Positions 2,179 to 37,377 of a stretch of 37,377 nt of DNA are shown piece after piece; the stretch's first letter is position 1; each line of letters begins with the position of its first letter. Origin of the DNA: Enterococcus phage vB_CECAV_04. The DNA lies in sequence record PV173148.1; one strand, 5' to 3'. The translations under genes were made by a program, and so were the position numbers. The notes under the pieces are model-generated. The model saw only the letters and a list, made by a program, of their open reading frames with translations. It did no database searches and was not told the origin of the DNA.

Positions 2179-3420
2179 ATGGCACTTGACCTACTTTTCA
2201 CGAAAAAACAACAAGAAGTATTAAAAGCATTAATGAGTGATGATTGGTTCATTGCTGTTTTACATGGCGCTGTTCGTAGTGGAAAAACGTATTTGAATAA
2301 CTATATTTTCTTATACGAAGTGCGTAGAGTTGCTGAAATCGCAAAACGTGAAGGAATAACCAACCCTATGTATATTCTAGCTGGTTATACGAAAAGTAAC
2401 ATTCAAGATAACGTTTTGAATGAACTTTCTAATGTGTTCGGCTTTGAATTTAAGTTTGACAAATTCGGTTCGTTTGAATTGTTCGGGGTTAAAATCGTAC
2501 AAACTACACACGGAACAAAAAACGGTGTTGGTCGCATCCGTGGTATGACAGCCTTTGGTGCTTACGTCAATGAAACGAGTTTAGCGAATGAAAGCGTATT
2601 TGAAGAAATAAAAGCCCGTTGCAGTGGTAAAGGCGCAAGGATAATCGCTGATACCAACCCGTCACACCCTGAACATTGGCTGAAAAAGAACTATATTGAT
2701 AGTGAAAGCCCTAGTATTAGGAGTTTTAACTTTGTATTGGAAGATAACACTTTTCTTAGTCAACGTTATATCGACAACTTGAAAGCGTCAACGCCAAGTG
2801 GTATGTTTTACGATAGAACAATTAAAGGCTTGTGGGTATCGGGCGAAGGCGTGGTATATCCCGACTTTGATATAACCAAGCATCTAATTCCTGAAATTGA
2901 CGAGAACGGAAACCACTTTCCGTATTGGAATTGTGATGAGTATATCGTAGGTTGCGACTGGGGATATTCTCACTTTGGAAGTATTTTGGTTTTAGGGAGA
3001 ATCGGGGACAATTGGTATCTTGTGGAAGAATACGCCGAGCAATACAAAGAAATTGATTACTGGGTTGATATAGCCTTGAACATAACAAACCAATACGGCT
3101 ACATTCCTTTTTATTGTGATAGCGCCCGACCTGAACACGTTGACAGATTTTTAAGAGAAGGAATTAACGCTATCAATGCTGACAAATCTATAATGAGTGG
3201 AATTGAACACGTTGCCAAGTTGATAAAATCAGATAACTTTTATATTATCAAGCATGATAAAGAATTGTATATTTTGAAAGAACTGTACGCTTATGCTTGG
3301 AATGAAAGCACGGGTTTACCAATTAAAGAAAATGATGACTGCTTGGACGCTTTACGATATGCTTTATACACTCATTGTTATAACCCGATTGAAATTAGTA
3401 ACCAAAGTATTTTTAAATAA
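2179..3420 (+). CDS. terL: Terminase large subunit (413 aa). Walker A GAVRSGKT, with a C-terminal nuclease region carrying acidic motifs.
   Basis: P-loop motif near the N-terminus, size, and position between terS and portal. Confidence 0.85.
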   Translation: MALDLLFTKKQQEVLKALMSDDWFIAVLHGAVRSGKTYLNNYIFLYEVRRVAEIAKREGITNPMYILAGYTKSNIQDNVLNELSNVFGFEFKFDKFGSFELFGVKIVQTTHGTKNGVGRIRGMTAFGAYVNETSLANESVFEEIKARCSGKGARIIADTNPSHPEHWLKKNYIDSESPSIRSFNFVLEDNTFLSQRYIDNLKASTPSGMFYDRTIKGLWVSGEGVVYPDFDITKHLIPEIDENGNHFPYWNCDEYIVGCDWGYSHFGSILVLGRIGDNWYLVEEYAEQYKEIDYWVDIALNITNQYGYIPFYCDSARPEHVDRFLREGINAINADKSIMSGIEHVAKLIKSDNFYIIKHDKELYILKELYAYAWNESTGLPIKENDDCLDALRYALYTHCYNPIEISNQSIFK

Positions 3421-6103: not shown

Positions 6104-6712
6104 ATGAATGAACAAGAAACATTGAATTTAGCTGAACAAGCCGTACAAAATGCAACAACGCAACCCGTTGAGCAAGAAACGCAACCCGTTGAAAGTGAAG
6201 TTACAACCAACGACAAACCAACGGAAAAAACATTTACACAGCAAGAAGTTGATGACATTGTAAAGTCACGAATTGAGCGAGAAATTAAAAAGTTAACAGC
6301 TAAAGCGCAAGAACCGAAAAAGCTAACTGAGATTAATGAAATTGAAACGTTGAAAAGTGAATTACAAGAAACACAAAAGGCGTTACAAGAATTGACAACT
6401 CAACATATCAAGACTGAATTGCGAGCAAAAGCAAGTGACATTTTAAATTCAAACGGTATCAAGCCGAATGATAAAATGCTTGATATTTTAGTGGCAGATA
6501 ATGCAGAAACAACTCATGACAATATCAAGGCTTTTACTGATTTATTAAAAACACAAGCCGTTGACATTGTAAAAGTGCAGATGAAGGGAGCAACCCCCGT
6601 AAGCACAACGGCTAACGTAACTAAAACGGTTACAAAAGCTGAAATTATGGCAATTAAAGACGTAAACGAACGCCAAAAAATGATTGCTGAAAACTTACAC
6701 TTATTCAAATAA
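6104..6712 (+). CDS. Scaffolding protein (about 202 aa), acidic with high helix propensity.
   Basis: Position directly upstream of the major capsid gene. Composition is rich in Q/E/K/T. SD AAGGGGGA. Confidence 0.65.
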   Translation: MNEQETLNLAEQAVQNATTQPVEQETQPVESEVTTNDKPTEKTFTQQEVDDIVKSRIEREIKKLTAKAQEPKKLTEINEIETLKSELQETQKALQELTTQHIKTELRAKASDILNSNGIKPNDKMLDILVADNAETTHDNIKAFTDLLKTQAVDIVKVQMKGATPVSTTANVTKTVTKAEIMAIKDVNERQKMIAENLHLFK

Positions 6713-13200: not shown

Positions 13201-13209
13201 AAAATACTT

Positions 13210-13242
13210 TCAACGGGTTGAGATAGTTTTTCAACCCGTTGA
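13210..13242 (+). promoter_or_regulatory. Intercistronic stem-loop TCAACGGGTTG-N11-CAACCCGTTGA (11-bp perfect stem) between TMP and Dit, immediately upstream of the Dit SD.
   Basis: Seen in the sequence. No T-tract follows, so I do not class it as a terminator. Confidence 0.55.
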
Positions 13243-14984: not shown

Positions 14985-17900
14985 ATGGCTCAAACATGGA
15001 CTATCTCAGATAAAAACTATGTAATGCTAGCACAATTTACAAATGAAGATAGTGATTTTATTTCTAATGACGAGCATTTCATTTCAGTCGATACGCCTTC
15101 CAGTTACTACCAATTTGACTGCTTGATTAACCACGAACTCGCAAAACACATTGCGGTTGGTAATCATGTTATTTTGAGAGATAAAGAAGACTATATACAC
15201 GACTTTACTATTAGAAAAATTACAACAGATATAAACAACGTTCGTATGACTGTTTACGTTGAAAACGGTGGCATGGACTTAAATAACGAAAGCGCACAAC
15301 CTTTTTCAGCGCCTAGTGAACAAAAAACGCTAGAATGGTATCTCACGCAACCGGGGCAACCATTGTATGATAGCCCGATTAAACTAGGGTTAAATGAGTT
15401 ATCCAATTTAAAACGTGTTATTTCAAATGATAGCACGGAAACAAAGTTGCTACAGCGTTTAATAACAACGGTTAACGCCTTTGATGGTGGCGAGTACCGA
15501 CTTCACGCTAAGTTAGCGAACAATAATACAACGTTGCCAGTTTTGAATTTACAGCTTGATATCGTTAAAAAATTGGGTTCAGATATTTCACAAACGTTCT
15601 TAATTGACGATTACAACTTGAAAGAACTGACAAATGAAACAAGTATTATCGATTTGATAACAGCTGTTTTTCCACGTGGTAAAGAGTTGGAAAATGGGAC
15701 AGTTGTTGATATATCAGACATCGTTTATGATGATGGAACATACTATACCACTAAAGGCAGTCAATATATTAAGAACCGAAAAGCGCATAGTGAATGGTCG
15801 TATAGTCGCTTTAGTAATGATGAACGTTGGGGCTACATTTTGGGTAACTTCGAATACGATACCGAAAGCCCACAAGAATTATTTAATCGTGCTTTAACGT
15901 ACTTGAAACAACATGATTCGCCAACCGTTGCATTTAGTGCAAGTGGTAGAGATATGAACGCTAAATTAGGCGATACAATTATGATTGCTACTCATAAAAC
16001 GCCAGACCCGATTTATTTGAGAGCAAGAGTGTTACAAATGAAAATCTCCTACGTTGACAACGATAAAACGGAGTACATTTTGGGCAACTTTGCTATACAA
16101 CCAAGCATGGTTTCTCAAGAGCTATTAAACCTTAGAAATCAGATTCAAGATAACAAAGTAGGTTATGTTTGGTTGCGCTACGCTGACGACCGAGAAGGTA
16201 ACGGTATAAGCGAAAACCCCGAAGGGAAAAGCTATTTAGGTATCGCTTACAATATGCCATACCCCGAACCATCAAACAACCCTAGCGATTATAATTGGTC
16301 GCTGATTAAAGGAACAAACGGTTCAAATGGCGCCGATGGTGTAGGGGTGCAAACTTCCAATGTTCAATATGCTTTGGGCGATAGTGGAACAACAGCGCCG
16401 ACAACGGGTTGGACAACGAACATACCAACTTTACAAGATAATAAATATCTTTGGACAAGAACAATTATCTATTACACGAACGGAACAAATAGCGTTTCTT
16501 ATAGTGTTTCTAAAAAAGGCGATAAAGGCGAACAGGGTATTCAAGGGACTAAAGGCGCGGACGGGCGAAGCCTTTATACTTGGTTGAAATACGCCGATGA
16601 TGTAAACGGAAATGGTATGAGTGAAACGCCTGACGGTAAAAAGTACATTGGACTTGCATATAATAAAACTGTATCAACAGAAAGTAGCAACCCTAGTGAT
16701 TATACATGGTCGCTGATTCAAGGCGAAAACGGGGTAAAAGGGGAAGACGGAAAAACCTACTATACATGGGTAAAATATGCCGATACGTCAACGGGGGCGG
16801 GTATGAGTGACAACCCTACGGACAAGAAATATATCGGACTTGCTTATAATAAGACAACCCCGACTGAAAGTACAAATCCTAGCGATTATCAATGGGCTTT
16901 GATTAAAGGTGATAAAGGCGAACAAGGGGAAACAGGAAACGGTGTATCATCAACCGTTGTCAATTACGGTATCTCGACGAGTGGAACTGTTCAGCCTACG
17001 AGTTGGGGAACAAGTATTCCTAGTGTACCGAACGGGCAATTTCTTTGGACACGAACCGTAATGAATTACACGAACGGAACAAGTACAACATTTTACAGCG
17101 TGGCTAAAATGGGCGAAACGGGTGCAAAAGGTACAATGGGAATTGCTTACTTGCAACCGACAGCGCCAACGGGGGACATTGAAACGGGGTCTACTTGGTT
17201 TAAAACTGTTTCCACAACTGACAAGCGTATCACAAGCATTTATCATTATTTGTCGGGTTCTTGGGTACAGAACCAATTCACACAAGACGCTATTAATGTA
17301 AAAAGTTTGAGTGCTTTGAGTGCCACGCTAGGGAATGTTACCGCGGGTACTATCACTGGTTCGAGCTTTACTACAACGTTCGACAGACCGTACACGGGTA
17401 CCACAAACCGAGTTGGTTCGCTTGCGATAAACGATGGTAAAATACGTATTGATTACAAAGACCGTAACACGTCAACAGGGGAAGAAACTGCGACTAATTC
17501 TTACATGGAATACAGCGAAACGGGAATTGATTTTGCTGAAAATGACGGAACTGCAACAGGCAAACGGCTAGAATTGAATAGCAATAGAATTGCTTTAGGC
17601 GCTAGTAACGGTTCTTTTTATGCAGACCCTAAAAAAATGACGTTATCGGGCGATGGTTATTTTGAGTCGCGACCAAGATATTTTCTAGGTTCGAGCGGAG
17701 ATACGAACTATCAGAAAATGTCTTGGACAGTTGACGGGTTCGAGTTGCGACCCGTTGATATCTACGGCAACCCTAGAAACGGAAACACGGGTGTTGAAAT
17801 AACTGGGACTATGTCGTATATTGACTTTAAAACACCATACAATGGTGCACAAGACTACGATATACGATTCATCGAAGATAGTAGCAAAATATTTACTATT

Positions 17901-18473
17901 CAGTCCGATACCCCACAGCCAATCTATATCAAAAGTAATGTCGGGGGGAACATTAGTTTAATTACTAACAATTCTAATGGTTGGGTAAATTCATGTTCAA
18001 ACAATGGCTTTAACTCACGAAACTCTTCCGACACGGCCTTTCAAAAGATACAAGCCAGTGGTTTCAACAACTTGTCCGATAAAAAATGGAAATATAACAT
18101 CAATGATATGCCGTCAAGGTTAGAACAATTTAAAAACATTGACTTTAAATCCTACCGTTTGTGGGCTGAAAGTGGAAAATATCAAGAAGGTATCATCGCC
18201 AATGATAACATTGAACTTCCATTTATCAACAAAGGTTACGACGGTTATTCGGTTGACACTTACGCTTATACAACGTTTATCGGAAAGGCTACACAAGAAT
18301 ATATTGTTCAGACTGATAATACTATCAACGAGTTGAAAAATGAAAATACTGAATTAAATAACAAAATCACTAACTTAGAAAGTGAAAATGCTGAATTAAA
18401 TAACAAAGTTGACAACCTATCAACCGAACTAGAAACAATCAAACAACAATTATCAACCTTGCTAAACAAATAA
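14985..18473 (+). CDS. Tail-associated lysin / tail fibre protein, Tal (1162 aa). N-terminal prophage-tail-like domain, internal tandem repeats, collagen-like G-X-Y triplets and a C-terminal coiled coil.
   Basis: Position after Dit and size. Triplet runs GDKGEQGIQGTKGADG and GDKGEQGETGNG. Repeats described separately. Confidence 0.8.
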   Translation: MAQTWTISDKNYVMLAQFTNEDSDFISNDEHFISVDTPSSYYQFDCLINHELAKHIAVGNHVILRDKEDYIHDFTIRKITTDINNVRMTVYVENGGMDLNNESAQPFSAPSEQKTLEWYLTQPGQPLYDSPIKLGLNELSNLKRVISNDSTETKLLQRLITTVNAFDGGEYRLHAKLANNNTTLPVLNLQLDIVKKLGSDISQTFLIDDYNLKELTNETSIIDLITAVFPRGKELENGTVVDISDIVYDDGTYYTTKGSQYIKNRKAHSEWSYSRFSNDERWGYILGNFEYDTESPQELFNRALTYLKQHDSPTVAFSASGRDMNAKLGDTIMIATHKTPDPIYLRARVLQMKISYVDNDKTEYILGNFAIQPSMVSQELLNLRNQIQDNKVGYVWLRYADDREGNGISENPEGKSYLGIAYNMPYPEPSNNPSDYNWSLIKGTNGSNGADGVGVQTSNVQYALGDSGTTAPTTGWTTNIPTLQDNKYLWTRTIIYYTNGTNSVSYSVSKKGDKGEQGIQGTKGADGRSLYTWLKYADDVNGNGMSETPDGKKYIGLAYNKTVSTESSNPSDYTWSLIQGENGVKGEDGKTYYTWVKYADTSTGAGMSDNPTDKKYIGLAYNKTTPTESTNPSDYQWALIKGDKGEQGETGNGVSSTVVNYGISTSGTVQPTSWGTSIPSVPNGQFLWTRTVMNYTNGTSTTFYSVAKMGETGAKGTMGIAYLQPTAPTGDIETGSTWFKTVSTTDKRITSIYHYLSGSWVQNQFTQDAINVKSLSALSATLGNVTAGTITGSSFTTTFDRPYTGTTNRVGSLAINDGKIRIDYKDRNTSTGEETATNSYMEYSETGIDFAENDGTATGKRLELNSNRIALGASNGSFYADPKKMTLSGDGYFESRPRYFLGSSGDTNYQKMSWTVDGFELRPVDIYGNPRNGNTGVEITGTMSYIDFKTPYNGAQDYDIRFIEDSSKIFTIQSDTPQPIYIKSNVGGNISLITNNSNGWVNSCSNNGFNSRNSSDTAFQKIQASGFNNLSDKKWKYNINDMPSRLEQFKNIDFKSYRLWAESGKYQEGIIANDNIELPFINKGYDGYSVDTYAYTTFIGKATQEYIVQTDNTINELKNENTELNNKITNLESENAELNNKVDNLSTELETIKQQLSTLLNK
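16160..17140 (+). repeat. Intragenic tandem repeats in Tal. There are three about 57-aa units (Y-W-x-YAD...GNGMSE.P.GK.YIGLAYNK...SNPSDY.WSLI) at roughly 16164-16340, 16575-16745 and 16758-16920. There are two about 64-aa units (...TSW/GWT..IP....LWTRT..YTNGT...YSV.K.G) at roughly 16345-16540 and 16940-17135.
   Basis: Protein and DNA level repeats visible in the ORF translation. Confidence 0.7.
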
Positions 18474-20440: not shown

Positions 20441-20462
20441 AACATGAGAGGTGGTTAAGCAA

Positions 20463-21260
20463 ATGACTAAATTTTATAAAGGCATTGCCGGCGCAAGGGG
20501 TTCAGCGCCTTTAGGAATTGTATTCCATAATGACGCCGGCTCACAAAATGCCAATGCGAATTTTTACCGAAATTGGTTACCTACTCATGACGCTGAAAAC
20601 GGGTTCGCTCACTACTATGTAGCGTCAGATGGTACTTATCAAGCCGAAGATGAAAAGAACATGGCTTGGCATACGGCAAACTCAAACGGTAACGCAAACT
20701 ATATCGGTATTGAAATTTGTCAATCAATGGGCGATGAAAAAACATTCCGTGAAAATGAACAAAAGGCTTTCAAACTTGGTGCTGAAATTTGCAAGCGCTA
20801 TGGTTGGGTGCCGAATTATAGCCTTTTTCCACTTCACAAGGAATTTTCATCGACTGATTGTCCACACCGTTCAAGTGAGTTGCACGGGCAATCAGTACAG
20901 GCAGTAAGGCAGTATTTTACCGACCAAGTTATGAAATATTATAACGGACAAGGCAATACTAATACACAAACAAATAACAAAGGGGGAATCGCGACTATGT
21001 ACGCTATTTATTGGATACCGAACAAGACTGGTAAAGGGGAAGACGCTTATTTCTTTAACGGGGTAGCTTATGAATATATCAACCACCCTGACGTCATCAA
21101 TATCTTAAAACAAGTTTACCGAGATAACAACGGGAAAGATATTCCCGAATATCATTGGAAAAATGGTGCGCCGTGGTGGATTAGATTAGAACAGCCTATT
21201 GTCAATCTTCAAGACATGGCTAACAAGATTGACAAAATTGCCAAGAAAACTGGTGCTTAA
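20463..21260 (+). CDS. Endolysin. N-acetylmuramoyl-L-alanine amidase (Amidase_2/PGRP fold) with a C-terminal cell-wall-binding domain (about 265 aa).
   Basis: Motifs HNDAG, AWHTANSNGNANYIGIE and SSTDCPH (zinc ligands) are characteristic of Amidase_2. ATG after a GAGAGGTGG SD. Confidence 0.85.
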   Translation: MTKFYKGIAGARGSAPLGIVFHNDAGSQNANANFYRNWLPTHDAENGFAHYYVASDGTYQAEDEKNMAWHTANSNGNANYIGIEICQSMGDEKTFRENEQKAFKLGAEICKRYGWVPNYSLFPLHKEFSSTDCPHRSSELHGQSVQAVRQYFTDQVMKYYNGQGNTNTQTNNKGGIATMYAIYWIPNKTGKGEDAYFFNGVAYEYINHPDVINILKQVYRDNNGKDIPEYHWKNGAPWWIRLEQPIVNLQDMANKIDKIAKKTGA

Positions 21261-21281
21261 AAAGGTAGAATAGTTTTATAA

Positions 21282-21373
21282 GGCTTTAAAATCGTTTATA
21301 AGGCGTTTTGTTAGCGTTGAGTATAATTAGCCTAGCTAATTGTCAAAACGCCTTAGAACGCAAAATAAGAGCC
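21282..21373 (+). repeat. Structured element R1-A. Inverted-repeat arms TAAGGCGTTTT (21299-21309) and AAAACGCCTTA (21345-21355) flank a 35-nt loop containing TGaGTATAAT. A conserved tail CTTAGAACGCAAAATAAGAGCC follows. It is homologous to 37078-37167.
   Basis: About 75% identity to the second copy. 11-bp perfect IR. Confidence 0.65.
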
Positions 21374-21400
21374 TTATAAGACAATATAAGGGGGTTTACA

Positions 21401-21853
21401 ATGTTTATTGAAAAATTTAGCGCACTAGTTAACAATAATTATTTTATTGTTTTTATGGTGCTAGTATCGTTCGACTATATCACGGGGGTCGCTAAGTCTA
21501 CCATTTGGAAAGTGACAGATTCAGACGCAAGTATCAAGGGTATTATTAGACATACGATTGTTCTTCTTAGCGTTGCTTTGATATGGGTAGGTTGTCAGTT
21601 GTTCGATGCTGAATACCTAGCATTTACGATTAATATTATGTATTGTTTGAATTATTCTTTAAGTATTTTAGAAAACTTTGGGGTTATGGGTATCTATGTT
21701 CCTAAATTCCTACAGAACAAAATCGAAGCTGAAATCAACCGATATGAGCAACAGCTCGAAAACAAGTTAGATAACAAAGACTTGAGAAATAAAAAATCTA
21801 AAACAGATGTCAACATCAATATTAGTCACGATAAAGAGCAAGATAACAAATAA
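21401..21853 (+). CDS. Holin (150 aa). Multiple TM helices and a charged C-terminal tail.
   Basis: Hydrophobic segments (FIVFMVLVSF, IVLLSVALIWVG, YCLNYSLSIL) and a Lys/Asp-rich C-terminus. Adjacent to the lysin. Confidence 0.75.
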   Translation: MFIEKFSALVNNNYFIVFMVLVSFDYITGVAKSTIWKVTDSDASIKGIIRHTIVLLSVALIWVGCQLFDAEYLAFTINIMYCLNYSLSILENFGVMGIYVPKFLQNKIEAEINRYEQQLENKLDNKDLRNKKSKTDVNINISHDKEQDNK

Positions 21854-22004: not shown

Positions 22005-22305
22005 GGACAAAATTAAGCTGTTAATGGACAAAATTAGGACAAAAAATGTAAGCGTTTTTGTCCATGACTTTCAGAGCCAAGAAGCCTTATTTCATGGTCT
22101 TTTTTCTTTCTTTTTAAAAGAAAAAGGACAAAGGACAAAAGATATAAGCAATTAGCATATACTGAACAAAAAGAAAAAAAATTTTTGTTTTACACTTGCT
22201 AGAAAGCGACTGAAAAATATTTTTGTTCCGTCCCTGAAATCACGCAACCCCTTGAACCACAACGGTTTGAGCATGGGACAGAATCACTCTATTTTGTTCC
22301 AAAGC
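22005..22305. repeat. Second iteron/operator array. GGACAAAA at 22005-22012, 22027-22034, 22037-22046, 22116-22122 and 22123-22130. TTTTTGTCC at 22055-22063, forming the dyad GGACAAAAAA-N8-TTTTTGTCC. Variants TTTTGTTCC at 22221-22229 and 22293-22301, GGGACAGAA at 22276-22284. A/T palindrome at 22088-22117.
   Basis: Same motif family as 120-282. It also shares CCCTGAA and GGACAGAA strings with region 1. Confidence 0.7.
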
Positions 22306-22923: not shown

Positions 22924-22956
22924 TTTGAGTACAACGCTGAAAAAATTAAAAATCTA

Positions 22957-22985
22957 TTGACTTTGAAATTCAATTGAGATATACT
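22957..22985 (+). promoter_or_regulatory. Promoter TTGACT-N17-TATACT (family AATCTATTGACTTT).
   Basis: Hexamers and spacing. Confidence 0.55.
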
Positions 22986-23633: not shown

Positions 23634-23888
23634 ATTAAAGTCTTAATGAAAAGCTAGGGCGAAACCTAGCTTTTCATTTACGCTGAAATTTATACAATTT
23701 TGTTTAAATATTCATTCAAAATGAATAAAATAATTTATCCGAAATATAATTTTTTTTTTTATTAAAGTCTTAATGAAAAGCTAGGGCGAAACCTAGCTTT
23801 TCATTTACGCTGAAATTTATACAATTTTGTTTAAATATTCATTCAAAATGAATAAAATAATTTATCCGAAATATAATTTTTTTTTTTT
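23634..23888 (+). repeat. Perfect tandem duplication of a 127-bp unit (23634-23760 and 23761-23888). The only difference is the length of the terminal T-run. Each unit carries a terminator hairpin AAAAGCTAGG-GCGAAA-CCTAGCTTTT (23649-23680 and 23776-23807) and a dyad TATTCATT-CAAA-ATGAATA.
   Basis: Seen in the sequence. Confidence 0.85.
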
Positions 23889-23898
23889 CAAAAAACTA

Positions 23899-23926
23899 TT
23901 GACTTTTCAATTATCCTTGATATAAT
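23899..23926 (+). promoter_or_regulatory. Promoter TTGACT-N16-TATAAT (extended -10 TGaTATAAT). Family motif AAAAACTATTGACTTTT.
   Basis: Hexamers and spacing. Confidence 0.6.
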
Positions 23927-31954: not shown

Positions 31955-31982
31955 AATAAATTAAAAAAGTTTGAAAAAAGTA

Positions 31983-32010
31983 TTGACTTTTGAATTAAGC
32001 AATGTATAAT
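31983..32010 (+). promoter_or_regulatory. Promoter TTGACT-N16-TATAAT. Family motif AAAAGTATTGACTTTT.
   Basis: Hexamers and spacing. Confidence 0.55.
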
Positions 32011-32807: not shown

Positions 32808-34757
32808 ATGATTACAGTTGACAATTTTTTAAACGGAGAAAACCTGGTATTTCTTGATATAGAAGTCTTTGCGTATGATTGGTTAGTAGTTGCTAAAGAC
32901 ATAAACCACAATGTTTTAGGGGTTTTTCGTAACGGAGTGAACCCGTGGGAACATGAAAAGCTAGTGAAAGACAATATCAGTAAGGGATTATCGAGATTGA
33001 TTGATGGCAAAGTGGTTGTTGGTTACAATAATTATTTTTATGATGATAAAATCTTAAACAAGCTATTAACTACCACAGACACAAGATTTATCAAAATGCT
33101 AAATGATACCATTATCAACGGACACCGATATAAGCAAGGTAAACAAGAATTTTTATCCCTTGACGTATTCAGACAGATTGATGTAAGTAACCCTAGCTTG
33201 AAGAAAATCGAAGCCAACAGGGGTACTAATATCGAAGAATCAAGTATACCGTTTGATATTAAACGTCCTTTGACGAGTGAAGAACTCACAAGCACTTTTG
33301 AATATTGTTCACATGACGTTTCAGAAACTATTGAAACATTTAAACTAAGATTGGATAACTACTTTGAACCAAAGCAGATTATTATTAGAGAAATTCTCAA
33401 CCGTTGGGGCGAGCGTTACGAGTTTTCAAGACTGATTAAACTTAACATAACGAGCTTAATGGGAATCTTGATTTTAGGAGATAAAAACATTGAACAATGG
33501 AACAGCTATCACGTTACAACGAAACCAACAGGCGCTTTTGAAAGTCATTATGAGTTAGTCACAGCTTGGAACGAACAAGACAAAGAATTTATCGACGCCC
33601 AAGTTAAAAACGGACTACCACAAGCCGTTGTCGATATGTGGAACAATAGTCAATTTAACCACTTAACGAATAAATTCGAGCGACCTACAAAGAAAGTTAT
33701 TATCGAAATGTTTGACAACAAGCTTGAATTCGGGTTTGGGGGCTTACATGGCGTACCCGCGGATAAGTCGCTAAGCGTGTTTAAAAACGTTTATATGTTA
33801 GACGTGGCGAGCCTATACCCGTCAATCATGGTTAAATTAGGGGTATTGGGAGAAGGTACGAAATACTTTGATAATATCATGCAACAGCGACTTGCATTTA
33901 AGCACACTAAAGGCAAGGAAAAGCAATCATTCGGGTTGAAAATCGGTATCAACTCAACATTCGGTTGTTTAATTAGTCAATATTCTAACCTTTTCAACCC
34001 TTACGGTGGTCAATCTGTTTGTATGTATGGGCAAATGTGTTTATTTGACCTTGCAAAGCGTCTTGATGAAATAGGTGCTTTCATGATGAACATTAACACA
34101 GACGGTATCGGGTTCACTCATGATAACATGGAAGAAGTTAAGCGAGTTTGGCACGAGTGGGAAAAGGTTTGGGGCTTTACCCTTGAATTGGACGAGTTTC
34201 ACAAAATTTACCAAAAAGACGTAAACAATTATATCGGTACACGCTTGATAGAAGGTAAAGAAACAGTTACAAAGGCCAAAGGGGGACAAGTTAGCCGATA
34301 CAAGAGCAACCAATATTTTAAAGATAATAGCTTGCGAATTTGCGATATTATGCTTGTAAATGCTATTGTTCACAAGACACCTCTAATGCAGACAATCAAA
34401 GATAATCTTAACAACCCTTTACTATTTCAGCAAGTGCTAAACAGAACGGGTAAATTTGCCAAGACCGTTGACGATAATGGGACCGAGTTTGACAACAAGG
34501 TTATCAGGGTTTTCGCTGTTAAGGCGGATGAAGTGACAGATGATTATGTAACAGTTGGAAAATTGTATAAACAGCGTGCAGACGGTTCAAGAATCGTTTT
34601 TGAGAAACTGAATGACACGAACATTATATTCAATGACAAGCTAGAAAATTTGGATATTGAAGATTTTTCAGAGATGATAAATAAAAAATACTACCTTAAA
34701 TTAGGCAATGACTTACTCAAACAATGGGGCTTTGACCTAAGCGAACAAGGTTACTAA
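32808..34757 (+). CDS. Family B DNA polymerase (649 aa) with an N-terminal 3'-5' exonuclease domain.
   Basis: Exo I FLDIEVF, Exo II YNNYFYDDKIL, Exo III YCSHDV. Pol motif A LDVASLYPS, motif B KIGINSTFG (the K-x3-NS-x-YG type), and a putative motif C NINTDGIG. Confidence 0.8.
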   Translation: MITVDNFLNGENLVFLDIEVFAYDWLVVAKDINHNVLGVFRNGVNPWEHEKLVKDNISKGLSRLIDGKVVVGYNNYFYDDKILNKLLTTTDTRFIKMLNDTIINGHRYKQGKQEFLSLDVFRQIDVSNPSLKKIEANRGTNIEESSIPFDIKRPLTSEELTSTFEYCSHDVSETIETFKLRLDNYFEPKQIIIREILNRWGERYEFSRLIKLNITSLMGILILGDKNIEQWNSYHVTTKPTGAFESHYELVTAWNEQDKEFIDAQVKNGLPQAVVDMWNNSQFNHLTNKFERPTKKVIIEMFDNKLEFGFGGLHGVPADKSLSVFKNVYMLDVASLYPSIMVKLGVLGEGTKYFDNIMQQRLAFKHTKGKEKQSFGLKIGINSTFGCLISQYSNLFNPYGGQSVCMYGQMCLFDLAKRLDEIGAFMMNINTDGIGFTHDNMEEVKRVWHEWEKVWGFTLELDEFHKIYQKDVNNYIGTRLIEGKETVTKAKGGQVSRYKSNQYFKDNSLRICDIMLVNAIVHKTPLMQTIKDNLNNPLLFQQVLNRTGKFAKTVDDNGTEFDNKVIRVFAVKADEVTDDYVTVGKLYKQRADGSRIVFEKLNDTNIIFNDKLENLDIEDFSEMINKKYYLKLGNDLLKQWGFDLSEQGY

Positions 34758-34790: not shown

Positions 34791-34952
34791 GCGTTTCTCA
34801 GTTGTGAATATTTTTAGCGAGTTGTAATAAATATTCATTTTCATGTATAAAATTGTATAAAAATTCAATATATACTACCGAAAACTGCATATTTTCAACT
34901 GGTTGAAAGTGAAATATTCACGGTCTACAGCGAAAAATTTTTAACAACCTAT

Positions 34953-34980
34953 TGACTTTTTGGCAGATTAATCATAAAAT
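34953..34980 (+). promoter_or_regulatory. Promoter TTGACT-N16-TAAAAT. Family motif AACAACCTATTGACTTTTT.
   Basis: Hexamers and spacing. Confidence 0.55.
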
Positions 34981-35025
34981 AATCTTGTGTTTTACACGCC
35001 TGAACTAAACAGAAAGAGAAAGGAA

Positions 35026-36978
35026 ATGATTAAAGCAATGTATATCCAATACAAGAACGGAACGAAGCGCCCTTTTAAAGACGCAGACGGCGAATATGTA
35101 TATTCCCCCGACCTTGAAGCATTTAATACTTGCGGAATTGTACTAACCGATACCGACATAGTACTTGACTTTGACAACGTAGACAAGCAGATATTGAGAA
35201 ATTTAATCAAAGTATTAAATATCAATACCGAAATTTGTTGGACGGAAAGAGGAGTACACTTATTTTTCAAAAAACCTAATGGGGTTAGGTTCCCCGTCAA
35301 TGCTATCGCTAAGTGTGGGTTGCCCGTGGAGTACAAAAAGAAAACGGGAAAAAATATCAGCATTACTCGTAAAATGAACGGCGTACCACGGGAAACATAC
35401 AACTTGGGCAAGCGTGAAGAACTGCCCGAATTTTTATACCCGTTTAAAAAGGGAACTGATAGCGATGCCGTCAACTTGTCAACTTTACAGCAAGGTTCAA
35501 GAAACAACAACCTTTTTAAATATGGTTTACTTATCAAGTCATTAAAAAATTGGCAAACCTATCTAAAATGGGCAAACGAAAATATCCTTGACGAACCCCT
35601 ACCCGAAAAAGAAATTGACGCAATTGTAAACAGCGTACAGGCGCACGAAGGCGGTACAGACAACGAATTTTCAGAAGATTACAATTTGGCACAGCGCGTT
35701 ATTAAAGAAAAGCGTGTTTATCTTTACAAGGAATTACTTTGGGTACTTATTTCTGACGAACCTTTAACGTGGTCTAGCCAAGACGAACATTTAAGGAAAG
35801 CAATCGGGGAGATAGCCAAAGGTCAAAGTGCAAGTATGCTAAGCGCCGTATTCACGCAACTTAAATATCATGCCCCGATTATTCGAGAAGATACCATTTT
35901 TCCCGTTCGCTTTGCAAATGGTATCTTAGAAAATGGTCGCTTTGATACAGACGATGACGAGCGTTTCTCACCTTACACAATAAACATTGTATACGACAAA
36001 CACGCTCAAAGCGTTAAAATCGTTGATGACTATTTAAACCACCTGACGCAAAATGATGAAAATTACAGGCGAGTTGTATTAGAAATGATTGGTCATTGTT
36101 TGATTACCAACCCTGAGAAAAAGAAAGCATTAGGCAAGTTTTTCTTCCTACACGGTGGTGGGGGAAACGGTAAAGGTACATTGCTTGAGATTATAACAGC
36201 AATTTTAGGACGTTCCAACGTATCAAATGTAAGCCCTAAACAGCTAAAAGACGAACGATATAGCAATGCTTTAATCGGGAAGTTGGCGAATTTAGCTGAT
36301 GATGTGGAAGATGTTTCTCTTGATAACGACATCATGAAAATCATGAAAAATATTTCAACGTGCGACAATATCCAGTTGCGCAAGCTCAACCATAACGCAA
36401 TTGAAACCCGTGTAACAGCAACCTTAATCAATACGACCAACCACTTGTTGAAATCCTTTGAAAAAGGCGACAGTTTCAGAAGGCGTATGCTTTGGTTGCC
36501 AATGTTTACCAAAGTAGAAAAGTTTGACGGTACTTTCATCACACGAATAACAGTACCCCAAGCATTGTCTTATTGGGTACGTTTAATAATCGAAGCGTAC
36601 GAGCGCCTTTGGGCGAATGGCGAGTTTACCAAGAGTGAAATGCTGAATGAAGCACAAACGGAGTATCACAGAAATAACAACAATACTATTATGTTCTTGG
36701 AAGATACCCCCGAAAGCGAGATACGTTGGCGAACTATTTCAGACATTTACACAAGTTATGAACAATGGTGCGAGGACGCTTGCGAAAAACCACTAGCTAA
36801 GATTAGATTGACTGAAAGCATTAGACAGTCACTAAACCTTGAAAGTAAGCTGACATGGCTACCAAACGGCTCAAACCGTGGGCGCTACTTTGTTCCCGTA
36901 GGTTATGACGCTAAAACCGATAAAGAACGAGAGTTGAAATGGTTGAATGAAAATTTGAAGCAATTACATGAAATGTAA
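35026..36978 (+). CDS. Bifunctional primase-polymerase (prim-pol) / D5_N / SF3 helicase (P4-family primase C-terminal domain), about 650 aa.
   Basis: N-terminal prim-pol-like region (DIVLDFDNVD...WTERGVHLFF). Walker A FFLHGGGGNGKGT and a downstream Walker B-like LANLADDVED. ATG after an AGAAAGGAA SD. Confidence 0.8.
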   Translation: MIKAMYIQYKNGTKRPFKDADGEYVYSPDLEAFNTCGIVLTDTDIVLDFDNVDKQILRNLIKVLNINTEICWTERGVHLFFKKPNGVRFPVNAIAKCGLPVEYKKKTGKNISITRKMNGVPRETYNLGKREELPEFLYPFKKGTDSDAVNLSTLQQGSRNNNLFKYGLLIKSLKNWQTYLKWANENILDEPLPEKEIDAIVNSVQAHEGGTDNEFSEDYNLAQRVIKEKRVYLYKELLWVLISDEPLTWSSQDEHLRKAIGEIAKGQSASMLSAVFTQLKYHAPIIREDTIFPVRFANGILENGRFDTDDDERFSPYTINIVYDKHAQSVKIVDDYLNHLTQNDENYRRVVLEMIGHCLITNPEKKKALGKFFFLHGGGGNGKGTLLEIITAILGRSNVSNVSPKQLKDERYSNALIGKLANLADDVEDVSLDNDIMKIMKNISTCDNIQLRKLNHNAIETRVTATLINTTNHLLKSFEKGDSFRRRMLWLPMFTKVEKFDGTFITRITVPQALSYWVRLIIEAYERLWANGEFTKSEMLNEAQTEYHRNNNNTIMFLEDTPESEIRWRTISDIYTSYEQWCEDACEKPLAKIRLTESIRQSLNLESKLTWLPNGSNRGRYFVPVGYDAKTDKERELKWLNENLKQLHEM

Positions 36979-37077: not shown

Positions 37078-37167
37078 TCTAAAACACGCTTAAAATCGTT
37101 TCTAAGCCGTTTTAGCCGTTTTGGGTATAATTACCCTAGAAACTATTTAAAACAGCTTAGAACGCAA
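37078..37167 (+). repeat. Structured element R1-B, homologous to 21282-21373. Arms CTAAGCCGTTTT (37093-37104) and AAAACAGCTTAG (37140-37151). The loop contains TGgGTATAAT. Conserved tail CTTAGAACGCAAATGAGAGCG.
   Basis: Aligned by eye to R1-A. The arms show a compensatory G:C to C:G swap. Confidence 0.6.
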
Positions 37168-37299
37168 ATGAGAGCGTTTTAATGTTGTTCAAGGCTATTT
37201 CATTCTTTCAGGGTTACAAGGTTGGTTGTTGAAGTAATAAAAAATGAGAAAATGACTGGTTTTCTTAAAATGCAATTAGTTTTATTAAAATTTAATTCG

Positions 37300-37377
37300 A
37301 ATTGTCTACAAATCACAAACAATTCAGTGTTTAATTCTTTTTTGGAACAAAATGGGGTAAAAATGTCCAGGGCTCAA
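37300..37377. repeat. Start of the TTTGTCC-family array at the window end (GGAACAAAA, ATGTCCAGGGC). It probably continues into positions 1-330 if the genome is circular or permuted.
   Basis: Motif similarity to 244-262 and 22221-22301. Confidence 0.4.

Follow-up and report, generated by a model that had tools for sequence, protein, structure and literature searches.

What are the two similar structured elements of about 90 base pairs (bp), here called R1-A and R1-B, that lie between genes in the genome of Enterococcus phage vB_CECAV_04 (PV173148.1; its 37,377 nucleotides (nt) are referred to below as the window)? An earlier reading of the DNA letters alone (the sequence-only reading) described them as a pair with a compensatory change in their inverted-repeat arms and listed promoter or activator modules, antitermination or processing structures and a two-copy small-RNA gene as possible functions. 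The observation is more general than that reading could see, as the family spans phages and plasmids: judged by sequence comparison, R1-A and R1-B are members of a family of palindromic cassettes that is widespread between the genes of Firmicutes mobile DNA and seems not to have been described. Tentatively, and somewhat short of probable, they may be two copies of a DNA-level promoter/boundary cassette that is recognised by the host and circulates among these mobile elements.

Each element has two inverted arms around an interval that contains a -10-type hexamer. The parts are as follows.

21282-21373, + strand: R1-A, in the gap between the endolysin and holin genes.
21273-21383, + strand: full R1-A palindrome, with outer stem GTTTTATAAGGCT / AGCCTTATAAGAC, occupying the whole endolysin-holin gap.
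21286-21309, + strand: left arm box of R1-A, TTAAAATCGTTTATAAGGCGTTTT, with a weak local hairpin and a T tract inside.
21299-21309, + strand: 5' arm of R1-A in its 11-nt form, TAAGGCGTTTT; the 12-nt form, TAAGGCGTTTTG, covers 21299-21310.
21312-21317, + strand: hexamer TAGCGT, identical to the CS-6 motif of the single-strand origins of rolling-circle plasmids; R1-A only.
21322-21327, + strand: -10-type hexamer TATAAT of R1-A, 12 nt past the left arm.
21345-21355, + strand: 3' arm of R1-A in its 11-nt form, AAAACGCCTTA; the 12-nt form, CAAAACGCCTTA, covers 21344-21355.
21352-21364, + strand: right flank of R1-A, CTTAGAACGCAAA, which repeats the outer part of the left box in inverted, degenerate form.
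37086-37177, + strand: full R1-B element, with outer stem ACGCTT / GAGCGT, 108 nt past the primase/helicase stop codon.
37090-37113, + strand: left arm box of R1-B, TTAAAATCGTTTCTAAGCCGTTTT.
37103-37113, + strand: 5' arm of R1-B, TAAGCCGTTTT.
37126-37131, + strand: -10-type hexamer TATAAT of R1-B, within the mini-palindrome GGGTATAATTACCC and 12 nt past the left arm.
37149-37159, + strand: 3' arm of R1-B, AAAACAGCTTA, with one C·A mismatch to the 5' arm.
37156-37168, + strand: right flank of R1-B, CTTAGAACGCAAA.

A repeat search of the window aligned 21286-21364 of R1-A with 37090-37168 of R1-B at 77% identity across 79 nt, close to the roughly 75% first estimated, and all four strings quoted as shared in the sequence-only reading are present. 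That reading placed R1-A correctly, whereas R1-B, which it set at 37078-37167, is better delimited as 37086-37177 (common block 37090-37168). The two copies share the arms TAAG(G/C)CGTTTT and AAAAC(GC/AG)CTTA with a 35-nt interval between them, and the 11-bp perfect inverted repeat reported around a 35-nt loop in R1-A is there and in fact extends to 12 bp. Three CGTT(T/G) repeats with a period of about 11 nt start in the left arm box of R1-A and extend to 21319. Where R1-A has TAGCGT, R1-B has TAGCCGT, and the family as a whole does not share the hexamer. The 24-nt left box matches the window twice against 0.00 matches expected, and perfect 11-nt inverted repeats number 20 matches (about 8 loci) against 1.3 expected. 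Folded as RNA, the two elements reach -31.7 and -30.9 kcal/mol with more than 20 stacked pairs, corresponding to z scores of -5.2 (R1-A) and -5.8 (R1-B) on the + strand and -4.5 and -5.5 on the - strand. Folded as DNA they give z scores of -6.4 and -3.6, the first being that of the R1-A palindrome (21273-21383) at -24.9 kcal/mol. Both the similarity and the palindromy of R1-A and R1-B are far above chance.

Is this palindromy kept for the sake of a folded structure? The G→C change in the left arm from R1-A to R1-B is indeed balanced by a C→G change in the right arm, as was originally pointed out, but the neighbouring pair in R1-B is a C·A mismatch. Two related metagenomic contigs from IMG/VR, with a primase 98% identical to that of the window, supply orthologous elements. 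The R1-A orthologue (contig L097) is 95% conserved across 21250-21400 with TATAAT unchanged, and around it the endolysin C-terminus is replaced or diverged and the holin is 87% identical as protein, so that R1-A is more conserved than its coding flanks; one pair of its main stem is broken. The R1-B orthologue (contig L095) is about 86% identical to R1-B compared with 92-93% in the non-coding flanks. Here 3/13 pairs of the main stem have been lost with no compensating change, three repeat units read CATTTT in place of CGTTTT and the core fold is only -2.2 kcal/mol, yet TATAAT and the centre are retained. Because the orthologues keep the -10 box and the centre while pairing breaks, the constrained parts appear to be the -10 box and the centre rather than the pairing.

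The wider family tells a mixed story. Among about 35-37 non-redundant elements (31 of them in the test of -10 position described below), the variable arm position is Watson-Crick in 21/37 (57%) as against 12.7±2.8 (34%) in shuffled sets (p≈0.003), and the covariation score of the extended palindrome is 0.183 versus 0.148 in the control, a value reached by 2/500 shuffles and above all slid controls. Stem mismatches are G·T in 74 cases and A·C in 69, with no strand preference and no excess of wobble, and no conserved fold was found in the interior of the interval across the family elements that were folded. Covariation in relatives, the check proposed in the sequence-only reading, is modestly above chance across the family, and the stems of the orthologues show uncompensated breaks. 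To call the change a hallmark of selected structure overstated the case, given these uncompensated breaks, the near-equality of G·T and A·C, the lack of a loop fold and the loss of the right arm in some relatives; as far as sequence comparison goes, the compensatory change exists but argues only weakly for a fold under selection. That the arms are complementary more often than chance predicts may be due to an occasional hairpin function or, alternatively, to copying of one arm from the other by template switching, a process known for quasi-palindromes.

The same data bear on a cis-acting RNA hairpin of about 90-110 nt in read-through mRNA, which could act in processing (for example by RNase III), as a stabiliser, in antitermination or in exposing the ribosome-binding site of the holin gene. 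Very stable folds (z about -5 to -6), intercistronic positions in co-directional operons and one compensated change between the paralogues together with modest family covariation are all consistent with such a hairpin. In addition, CCTTATA at 21375-21381 can pair, as read from the sequence, with either of two TATAAGG strings, one upstream at 21277-21283 and one overlapping the Shine-Dalgarno sequence of the holin gene. However, stem changes in the orthologues are uncompensated, wobble or strand asymmetry is lacking, and the sequence of the arms is conserved where a plain stem would not need it. The element also occurs at a divergent junction without an upstream co-directional gene (phage BC611) and antisense to genes (Javan490), it has no Rfam family, and a transcript from the internal TATAAT, if active, would lack the 5' arm. 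We therefore regard an RNA hairpin as quite unlikely. HK022 putL and putR are paired cis-acting antitermination RNAs, and early mRNAs of T7 and SP82 have RNase III processing hairpins. Like these, R1-A and R1-B are two diverged stem-loops of about 70-90 nt per genome at operon boundaries with some compensatory change. Unlike them, a put site lies downstream of its promoter and acts as RNA, whereas the best-conserved feature of R1 is a -10 box in the loop, and R1 stems decay uncompensated with arm sequence, not pairing alone, being conserved. The resemblance to paired put-like RNAs is superficial.

How far the cassette extends beyond this phage was explored from both the box and the two-arm pattern. 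The 24-nt left box occurs exactly in 8 IMG/VR contigs (about 0.04 expected, a rough estimate), only one of which is a close relative, and exact copies are also found in genomes and plasmids. A search of IMG/VR with the pattern TAAGnCGTTTT-N25-50-AAAACGnCTTA, allowing 47-72 nt in total, gave 40 further viral loci, and in 24/40 of these the total length is 57-58 nt, as in R1-A and R1-B. With R1-B as query, blastn matched 194 phage records. The architecture common to the family is a pair of arms separated by 35-36 nt and a -10 box at a distance of 12-13 nt from one of them; centres vary by lineage while spacing and -10 position are kept. Several copies may occur in one contig: 2 in the window, 4 in the L105/L127 contig and a tandem pair in L139.

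Among phages, about 60 Enterococcus Saphexavirus genomes carry the element with the centre TTTGGGGATAATTACCCTAGAAGCTATCTAAAAG. In the Saphexavirus phages BC611 and EFKL the late operon opens with terS, and the element sits at a divergent junction about 200 nt before it; the R1-B centre TTGGGTATAATTACCCTAGAAACTATTTAAAA is about 78% identical to the element upstream of Saphexavirus terS. In Enterococcus phage fHoEfm07 a replication initiator gene starts about 40 nt past the element, and in Streptococcus prophage Javan174 the element lies in the early region. In the Bacillus Nitunavirus phages phiNIT1 and SPG24 it belongs to the terminal redundancy, 170-230 nt from the physical end of the genome and shortly before the first canonical early promoter. 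Bacillus anthracis phage Tsamsa (L144) also carries one; the same 1.5-kb non-coding region of Tsamsa contains, at 2200-2330, the LexA-box-like palindromes CGAACAGTTGTTCGAA and CGAACATTCGTTC. Both Saphexavirus and Weissella phage WC27P1 keep the left box and -10 without the right arm, the -10 in WC27P1 lying about 40 nt before gene 14, after a 210-nt gap. Lactobacillus-type prophages likewise have the left box and -10 without the right arm, upstream of pairs of open reading frames (ORFs) whose sizes suggest terS and terL.

In four of these Lactobacillus-type prophages (L003, L004, L005 and L035) a string GTTTAAAAC..CCCCC(C)GCCC trails the left box upstream of the terS/terL-sized ORF pairs. It recurs in a 3.4-kb rolling-circle plasmid of S. 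thermophilus (L156, about 3250-3300) beside a TTGACT-N17-TACTAT promoter, and this plasmid occurrence argues against its being a cos site.

Plasmids are a second home of the family. The element was matched in 365 PLSDB records, chiefly from Lactiplantibacillus (91), Enterococcus (79) and Lactococcus (68); 197/365 are classed as mobilizable and 23 as conjugative, and the carriers span 2-60 kb. Partial arms are present at mosaic junctions, as in Inc18 plasmids beside an integrated cat plasmid. No Rfam match was found at the elements at gathering thresholds in the window and 18 related loci, and matches in E-value mode were all at chance level (E >= 0.075), far under gathering scores. Full-text literature searches did not find the box and arm sequences, nor did we find a published description or database family.

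Not every resemblance belongs to the family. A genome scan with a 21-nt left motif gave 86 matches, but most of those in Clostridia (with T at the variable base) are ordinary terminator hairpins of the form ACGCCTTAAAA-TCGT-TTTTAAGGCGT followed by Ts, and were excluded, as the query is itself palindromic and T-tailed, which can account for them. A metagenome scan with GTATAATTASCCTAG produced chance matches only, with 0/120 having an arm-box-like TAAG plus CGTTT/CATTT just upstream. One of the Clostridia matches, at about 900-925 of L078 (CAJUGU010000012.1, a metagenome-assembled genome of Eubacteriales), has the left-box motif AAAAATCGTTTTTAAGCCGTTTTAAA in a CRISPR spacer between GTCGCCCCCCGCACGGGGGCGCGGATTGAAAC repeats, so that some host has targeted a mobile element with such a sequence.

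What, then, is conserved across this family? The arm box has the consensus (A/T)TCGTTT(C/T)TAAGnCGTTTT at about -48 to -25, and an inverted copy lies at about +12 to +30. TATAAT is perfect in both copies in the window and unchanged in both orthologues. A good -10 hexamer lies 11-14 nt from an arm in 16/31 family members, compared with 3.2±1.7 for shuffled loops, with a sharp peak at 12-13 nt. Elements are wedged between ORFs and, in tight cases, follow a stop codon by about 10-60 nt and have the next start codon 3-46 nt past the right arm; in plasmid L062 the element is about 110 nt upstream of the epsilon-antitoxin gene. In the window, both elements are at module boundaries, as had been noted: R1-A between endolysin and holin, R1-B past the primase/helicase gene. 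Of the functions first listed, a promoter-type one is the best supported, by a TATAAT that is perfect, invariant and at a fixed offset in the family.

The fixed arm-to-arm length combined with the lack of a conserved loop fold points to contacts on duplex DNA rather than on a hairpin loop, and the absence of strand asymmetry in mismatch type also fits a function of the duplex. Taken together, fixed geometry, conserved arm sequence, a dispensable hairpin, no wobble asymmetry and a position at gene starts suggest a duplex-DNA function around a promoter core. The presence of the cassette in small plasmids and unrelated phages that have no detected protein in common further suggests that its reader is host machinery or a host factor.

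A promoter/boundary cassette of this kind might work as follows, the start sites, activity, box roles and host component all being predictions. Host RNA polymerase would start about 7 nt past TATAAT, near 21334 and 37138. The upstream arm box would stand in for the -35 contact, and its weak hairpin and T tract would damp read-through; the downstream inverted box would do likewise on the opposite strand, making the cassette an insulated re-start point. R1-A would then give the holin gene a transcription start of its own, uncoupled from endolysin, and a transcript begun at R1-B, where the replication module ends, would enter the control region ahead of orf401 and terS. Recognition would be by host machinery or a host factor, independent of any activator peculiar to this phage.

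Such a module would explain how the timing of holin could be separate from that of endolysin and how transcription restarts past the replication genes. Hundreds of phage and plasmid intergenic regions, at present blank, could moreover be annotated by its signature: arm box, 12-13 nt, TATAAT, about 17 nt and an inverted arm box. The cassette occurs in phages and plasmids from lactic-acid bacteria, enterococci, streptococci and bacilli, which suggests that these hosts share a component that mobile elements exploit.

Several observations weigh against a host-read promoter. There is no -35 hexamer 16-18 nt upstream of TATAAT, where TAAGGC and TAAGCC stand instead (at most 1/6 matches). The TGnGTATAAT box reported earlier is present, but its TG is one base too far upstream for the canonical extended -10 (TGnTATAAT), so that no canonical TGn extension exists. 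As a self-sufficient sigma-A promoter the cassette fails, and without -35 and TGn its factor-free activity is uncertain; a promoter consensus scan listed neither R1 -10 site. Relative to co-oriented flanking ORFs in metagenomic contigs, the -10 is sense-only in 11 cases, antisense-only in 6, on both strands in 3 and absent in 9, although orientation judged from the -10 score alone is unreliable because many centres are palindromic. In the annotated cultured phages that we inspected, the -10 is in sense orientation except in the streptococcal satellites, the Nitunavirus case being ambiguous. In the S. pyogenes satellites (Javan490) the -10 box is antisense to the genes. In phiNIT1 the element is 40 nt upstream of the first canonical early promoter, which leaves no need for a promoter function of the element in that phage. 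Single or direct-repeat arm boxes occur beside the single-strand origin region of pWV01-type plasmids, and the family's arm pairing at variable positions exceeds chance, so that a duplex-only model needs arm-to-arm copying.

The missing -35 could instead mean that R1 is a late promoter specific to this phage, with arms that bind an activator or antiterminator that the phage encodes; this was the leading idea of the sequence-only reading. A -35-less promoter beside canonical early ones is the classic layout of factor-dependent middle/late control, both copies lie at late-module boundaries, and the phage has many ORFs of unassigned function, including orf401-1216 just upstream of terS. Against this, the same boxes, spacing and centre are seen in Saphexavirus, Nitunavirus, Weissella and Streptococcus elements and in 2-60-kb plasmids, and BLASTP (E 1e-3) found no regulator common to the carriers, in a comparison that covered the window, WC27P1, the satellite Javan490, the first 50 kb of BC611 and partial loci of other carriers. 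The matches that it did give between carriers were structural, primase and holin proteins only, plus one pair of short unannotated ORFs. Phage-specific control is also better fitted by two other motifs of this genome described below, CAAC(S)(S)GTTG and the clustered TTTTGTCC boxes. An activator site specific to the late genes of this phage is thus very unlikely, the cassette occurring in unrelated phages, satellites and plasmids with no detected common regulator.

Factor-dependent, -35-less middle and late promoters include the MotA-box middle promoters of T4 and the late promoter of TP901-1 with Alt, and of the known systems compared here the R1 cassette would seem to work most like these. 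RinA/ArpU-dependent promoters upstream of terS offer a further comparison (RinA as described in a literature abstract). Like -35-less middle/late phage promoters, R1 has a good -10 and a conserved upstream box in place of the -35, occurs at the start of late or packaging modules and is distinct from the canonical early promoters of the same genome. It differs from them in that its carriers lack a detected common activator and include small plasmids, and in that its box is repeated in inverted orientation past the start site at a fixed spacing of 35-36 nt. The early promoters of this phage are canonical (TTGACT-N16/17-TATAAT) and clearly unlike R1, which has no -35 and would therefore be a distinct promoter class inside one genome.

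The strongest rival to a host-read promoter/boundary cassette is a serious, if unlikely, possibility: a single-strand DNA initiation signal comparable to plasmid sso or ssi sites. Here the exposed strand would fold, and host RNA polymerase or primase would prime complementary-strand synthesis on the folded DNA, with a TATAAT-rich loop and a conserved stem as the recognition features. The strand could be exposed as lagging-strand template, in the course of sigma or rolling-circle replication, or once it has entered by conjugation. The family is seen on mobile DNA only (phages, satellites and plasmids), with no detected cognate protein, and the PLSDB matches are mostly mobilizable. In the plasmids inspected, the neighbours of the element are mob cassettes, replication genes or oriT-like nick sites. 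In L150 and L152 it starts no more than 10 nt from where a RepA_N-type repA stops and faces a mobC-relaxase operon; in L151 it lies upstream of mobC, and in L062 it is 0.5 kb from TAAGTGCGCCCT nick-site motifs. In pNZ4000 the same left-box block is beside mobC.

L062 is itself a 7.5-kb contig of Enterococcus dongliensis with about 3000x coverage, a high-copy theta plasmid with five 22-bp iterons, a ctRNA_pND324 match and three MOBQ-type nick-site motifs (TAAGTGCGCCCT). It carries a full R1-type palindrome with the epsilon-antitoxin gene directly downstream.

Rolling-circle plasmids of the pWV01 type provide the closest link to a single-strand signal. Their left box, which shares its strand with rep and the TACTACGAC nick motif, adjoins a large inverted repeat located upstream of the double-strand origin, and the first 19 nt of the R1-B left box are identical (19/19) to this plasmid box (pUL8C 1413-1445). 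The single-strand origin of this plasmid type (inverted repeats I and II) maps to the region just upstream of the double-strand origin (PMC7866527; PMC2951906). The R1-A loop contains TAGCGT, the CS-6 sequence of single-strand origins (PMC4598088). Phage elements, too, often adjoin replication genes (R1-B past the primase; fHoEfm07, L083 and Javan174), the phiNIT1 element is 170-230 nt from a physical genome end, the single-stranded DNA folds are strong (z -6.4 and -3.6), and arm covariation is above chance.

The hairpin is nevertheless dispensable in relatives, its arms being decayed in L095 and the right arm absent from WC27P1 and Saphexavirus. The RSB motif of ssoA, TTATGCCGAGAAAATTT, is absent from R1-A and R1-B; an RSB-like TTTTGCCGAG occurs elsewhere in pUL8C and pNZ4000. 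No arm box was found in the ori/ssiA region of pAMβ1 (2720-2950, about 150 bp downstream of ori), and the pWV01-type plasmids have only single or direct boxes, outside the large inverted repeat. Known sso elements are strand-specific, yet no bias of G·T over A·C is seen here, and a fixed 35-36-nt loop with no conserved internal fold is unusual among known sso types.

Compared with ssoA, ssoW and the F single-stranded promoter Frpo, R1 elements are likewise palindromic, non-coding, apparently host-recognised, common to unrelated replicons and often beside mob cassettes. A further likeness to ssoA and ssoW is that the R1 left box adjoins the pWV01-type single-strand origin region; the CS-6 hexamer is present in R1-A but neither in R1-B nor generally in the family. 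R1 elements are unlike ssoA and ssoW in having no RSB motif, a hairpin not kept in all relatives and no strand bias, and in that most carriers are double-stranded DNA phages and theta plasmids. In its broadest form, the idea would make the R1 arm-box palindrome an unrecognised class of host-read cis-element confined to Firmicutes mobile DNA, a universal single-strand initiation or entry-phase start signal; this we consider conceivable and on balance unlikely. That class would span lytic and temperate phages, satellites, and theta and rolling-circle plasmids, and host RNA polymerase or primase would be brought in by its folded DNA, unaided by any protein that the element encodes, a proposal to which we likewise give a low probability. 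To our knowledge, sso-like function has so far been described only for plasmids, integrative and conjugative elements and single-stranded DNA phages; if the proposal were true, double-stranded DNA phages would gain such a function. Finding the host component of a promoter/boundary cassette, or proof of DNA-synthesis priming, would be of importance to the biology of phages and plasmids and to the design of vectors for these hosts.

Might the elements have little function of their own? A selfish miniature repeat (like a miniature inverted-repeat transposable element), a recombination scar, a duplicated terminator or a two-copy small-RNA gene would be compatible with several copies in many contigs (2 here, 4 in L105/L127, the tandem pair in L139), with the partial arms at mosaic junctions such as those of Inc18 plasmids, and with the many left-motif matches in Clostridia that are ordinary terminator hairpins. 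There are, however, no target-site duplications; centres are lineage-specific, yet spacing and -10 position are kept; and R1-A is more conserved than its coding flanks. With neither a terminator past either element nor an Rfam match, the small-RNA gene that had been suggested finds no support, and this whole group of explanations appears highly improbable. At the left box no intrinsic terminator was called by the terminator scan, its hairpin being A/T-rich, mismatched and followed only by TTTT, and the long palindrome has no T run behind it. The one call of the scan, 37157-37182, is weak-tailed and has no counterpart in R1-A. Correia (CREE) and REP/BIME sequences are short palindromes repeated between genes; they can contain promoter elements and, once transcribed, fold into hairpins. 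R1 is like them in these respects, but unlike them it is confined to mobile DNA at 1-4 copies, has lineage-specific centres and lacks transposition signatures.

Further candidates were rejected. The folded loop might serve as a pre-opened transcription bubble, with the -10 single-stranded and duplex from +1; this fits R1-A and R1-B by eye but not the family, in which the distance from -10 box to duplex varies from 1 to 22 nt, so that the idea fails. By eye, on spacing or sequence against consensus sequences, we also rejected sites for SigB (GTTT-N12-15-GGGTAT), ECF sigma factors and ComX, LytTR or OmpR-type direct repeats, sites for cre/CcpA, CodY and LexA, the XerS dif site and T3/T7-like promoters.

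The window represents a whole genome, closed into a circle, of a lytic virus resembling siphophages; every gene is on the + strand, and related contigs continue from the R1-B region directly into window position 1. No close relative was found among cultured phages by megablast of the locus against phage genomes. The nearest cultured phages are of the Listeria P35/P40 type, with primase identity of 37-40%. The genes that frame the two elements are as follows.

401-1216, + strand: orf401, of unassigned function, just upstream of terS.
From 1767, + strand: terS.
From 2179, + strand: terL.
20451-21260, + strand: endolysin.
21401-21853, + strand: holin (Phage_holin_4_1), its ATG 73 nt downstream of the R1-A -10 box.
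From about 22357, + strand: early genes.
32808-34757, + strand: DNA polymerase.
34987-36978, + strand: primase/helicase.

Between R1-B and orf401 there is no ORF of at least 50 amino acids. The near-consensus early promoters lie in a longer conserved block, AAAAA(C/A)CTATTGACTTT...TATAAT, at five places:

311-360: near-consensus early promoter.
22936-22985: near-consensus early promoter.
23886-23926: near-consensus early promoter.
31962-32010: near-consensus early promoter.
34931-34980: near-consensus early promoter.

Other repeats were noted in the same genome. Both early/late boundaries hold one copy of an inverted repeat of about 295 bp (37341-37377 plus 1-257 versus 22024-22303; 73-91% complementary), the copies beginning 165 nt past R1-B and about 650 nt past R1-A. 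Packed into these repeats are TTTTGTCC boxes, which number 12 in the window against 3.05 expected and cluster at 128-274 and 22005-22140; the repeats with their boxes are probably operator arrays or a bidirectional terminator region. The palindrome CAAC(S)(S)GTTG has 7 copies (3432, 5251, 6161, 6182, 13211, 13232 and 16402) against 0.15 expected, all in the late region and most apparently in or near intergenic gaps, with hairpin pairs at 6161-6196 and 13206-13241. It is a candidate phage-specific regulatory or terminator motif of the late region. A perfect 127-bp tandem duplication (23634-23760 / 23761-23887) lies just upstream of the early promoter at 23886-23926, and each unit contains a hairpin with 29-nt arms around AAAGCTAGG...CCTAGCTTT. 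Finally, the tail/fibre gene at 14985-18473 has internal direct repeats, a 140-nt unit present three times (16203, 16614 and 16800) and a 96-nt pair (16444 and 17038), which suggests repeated domains.

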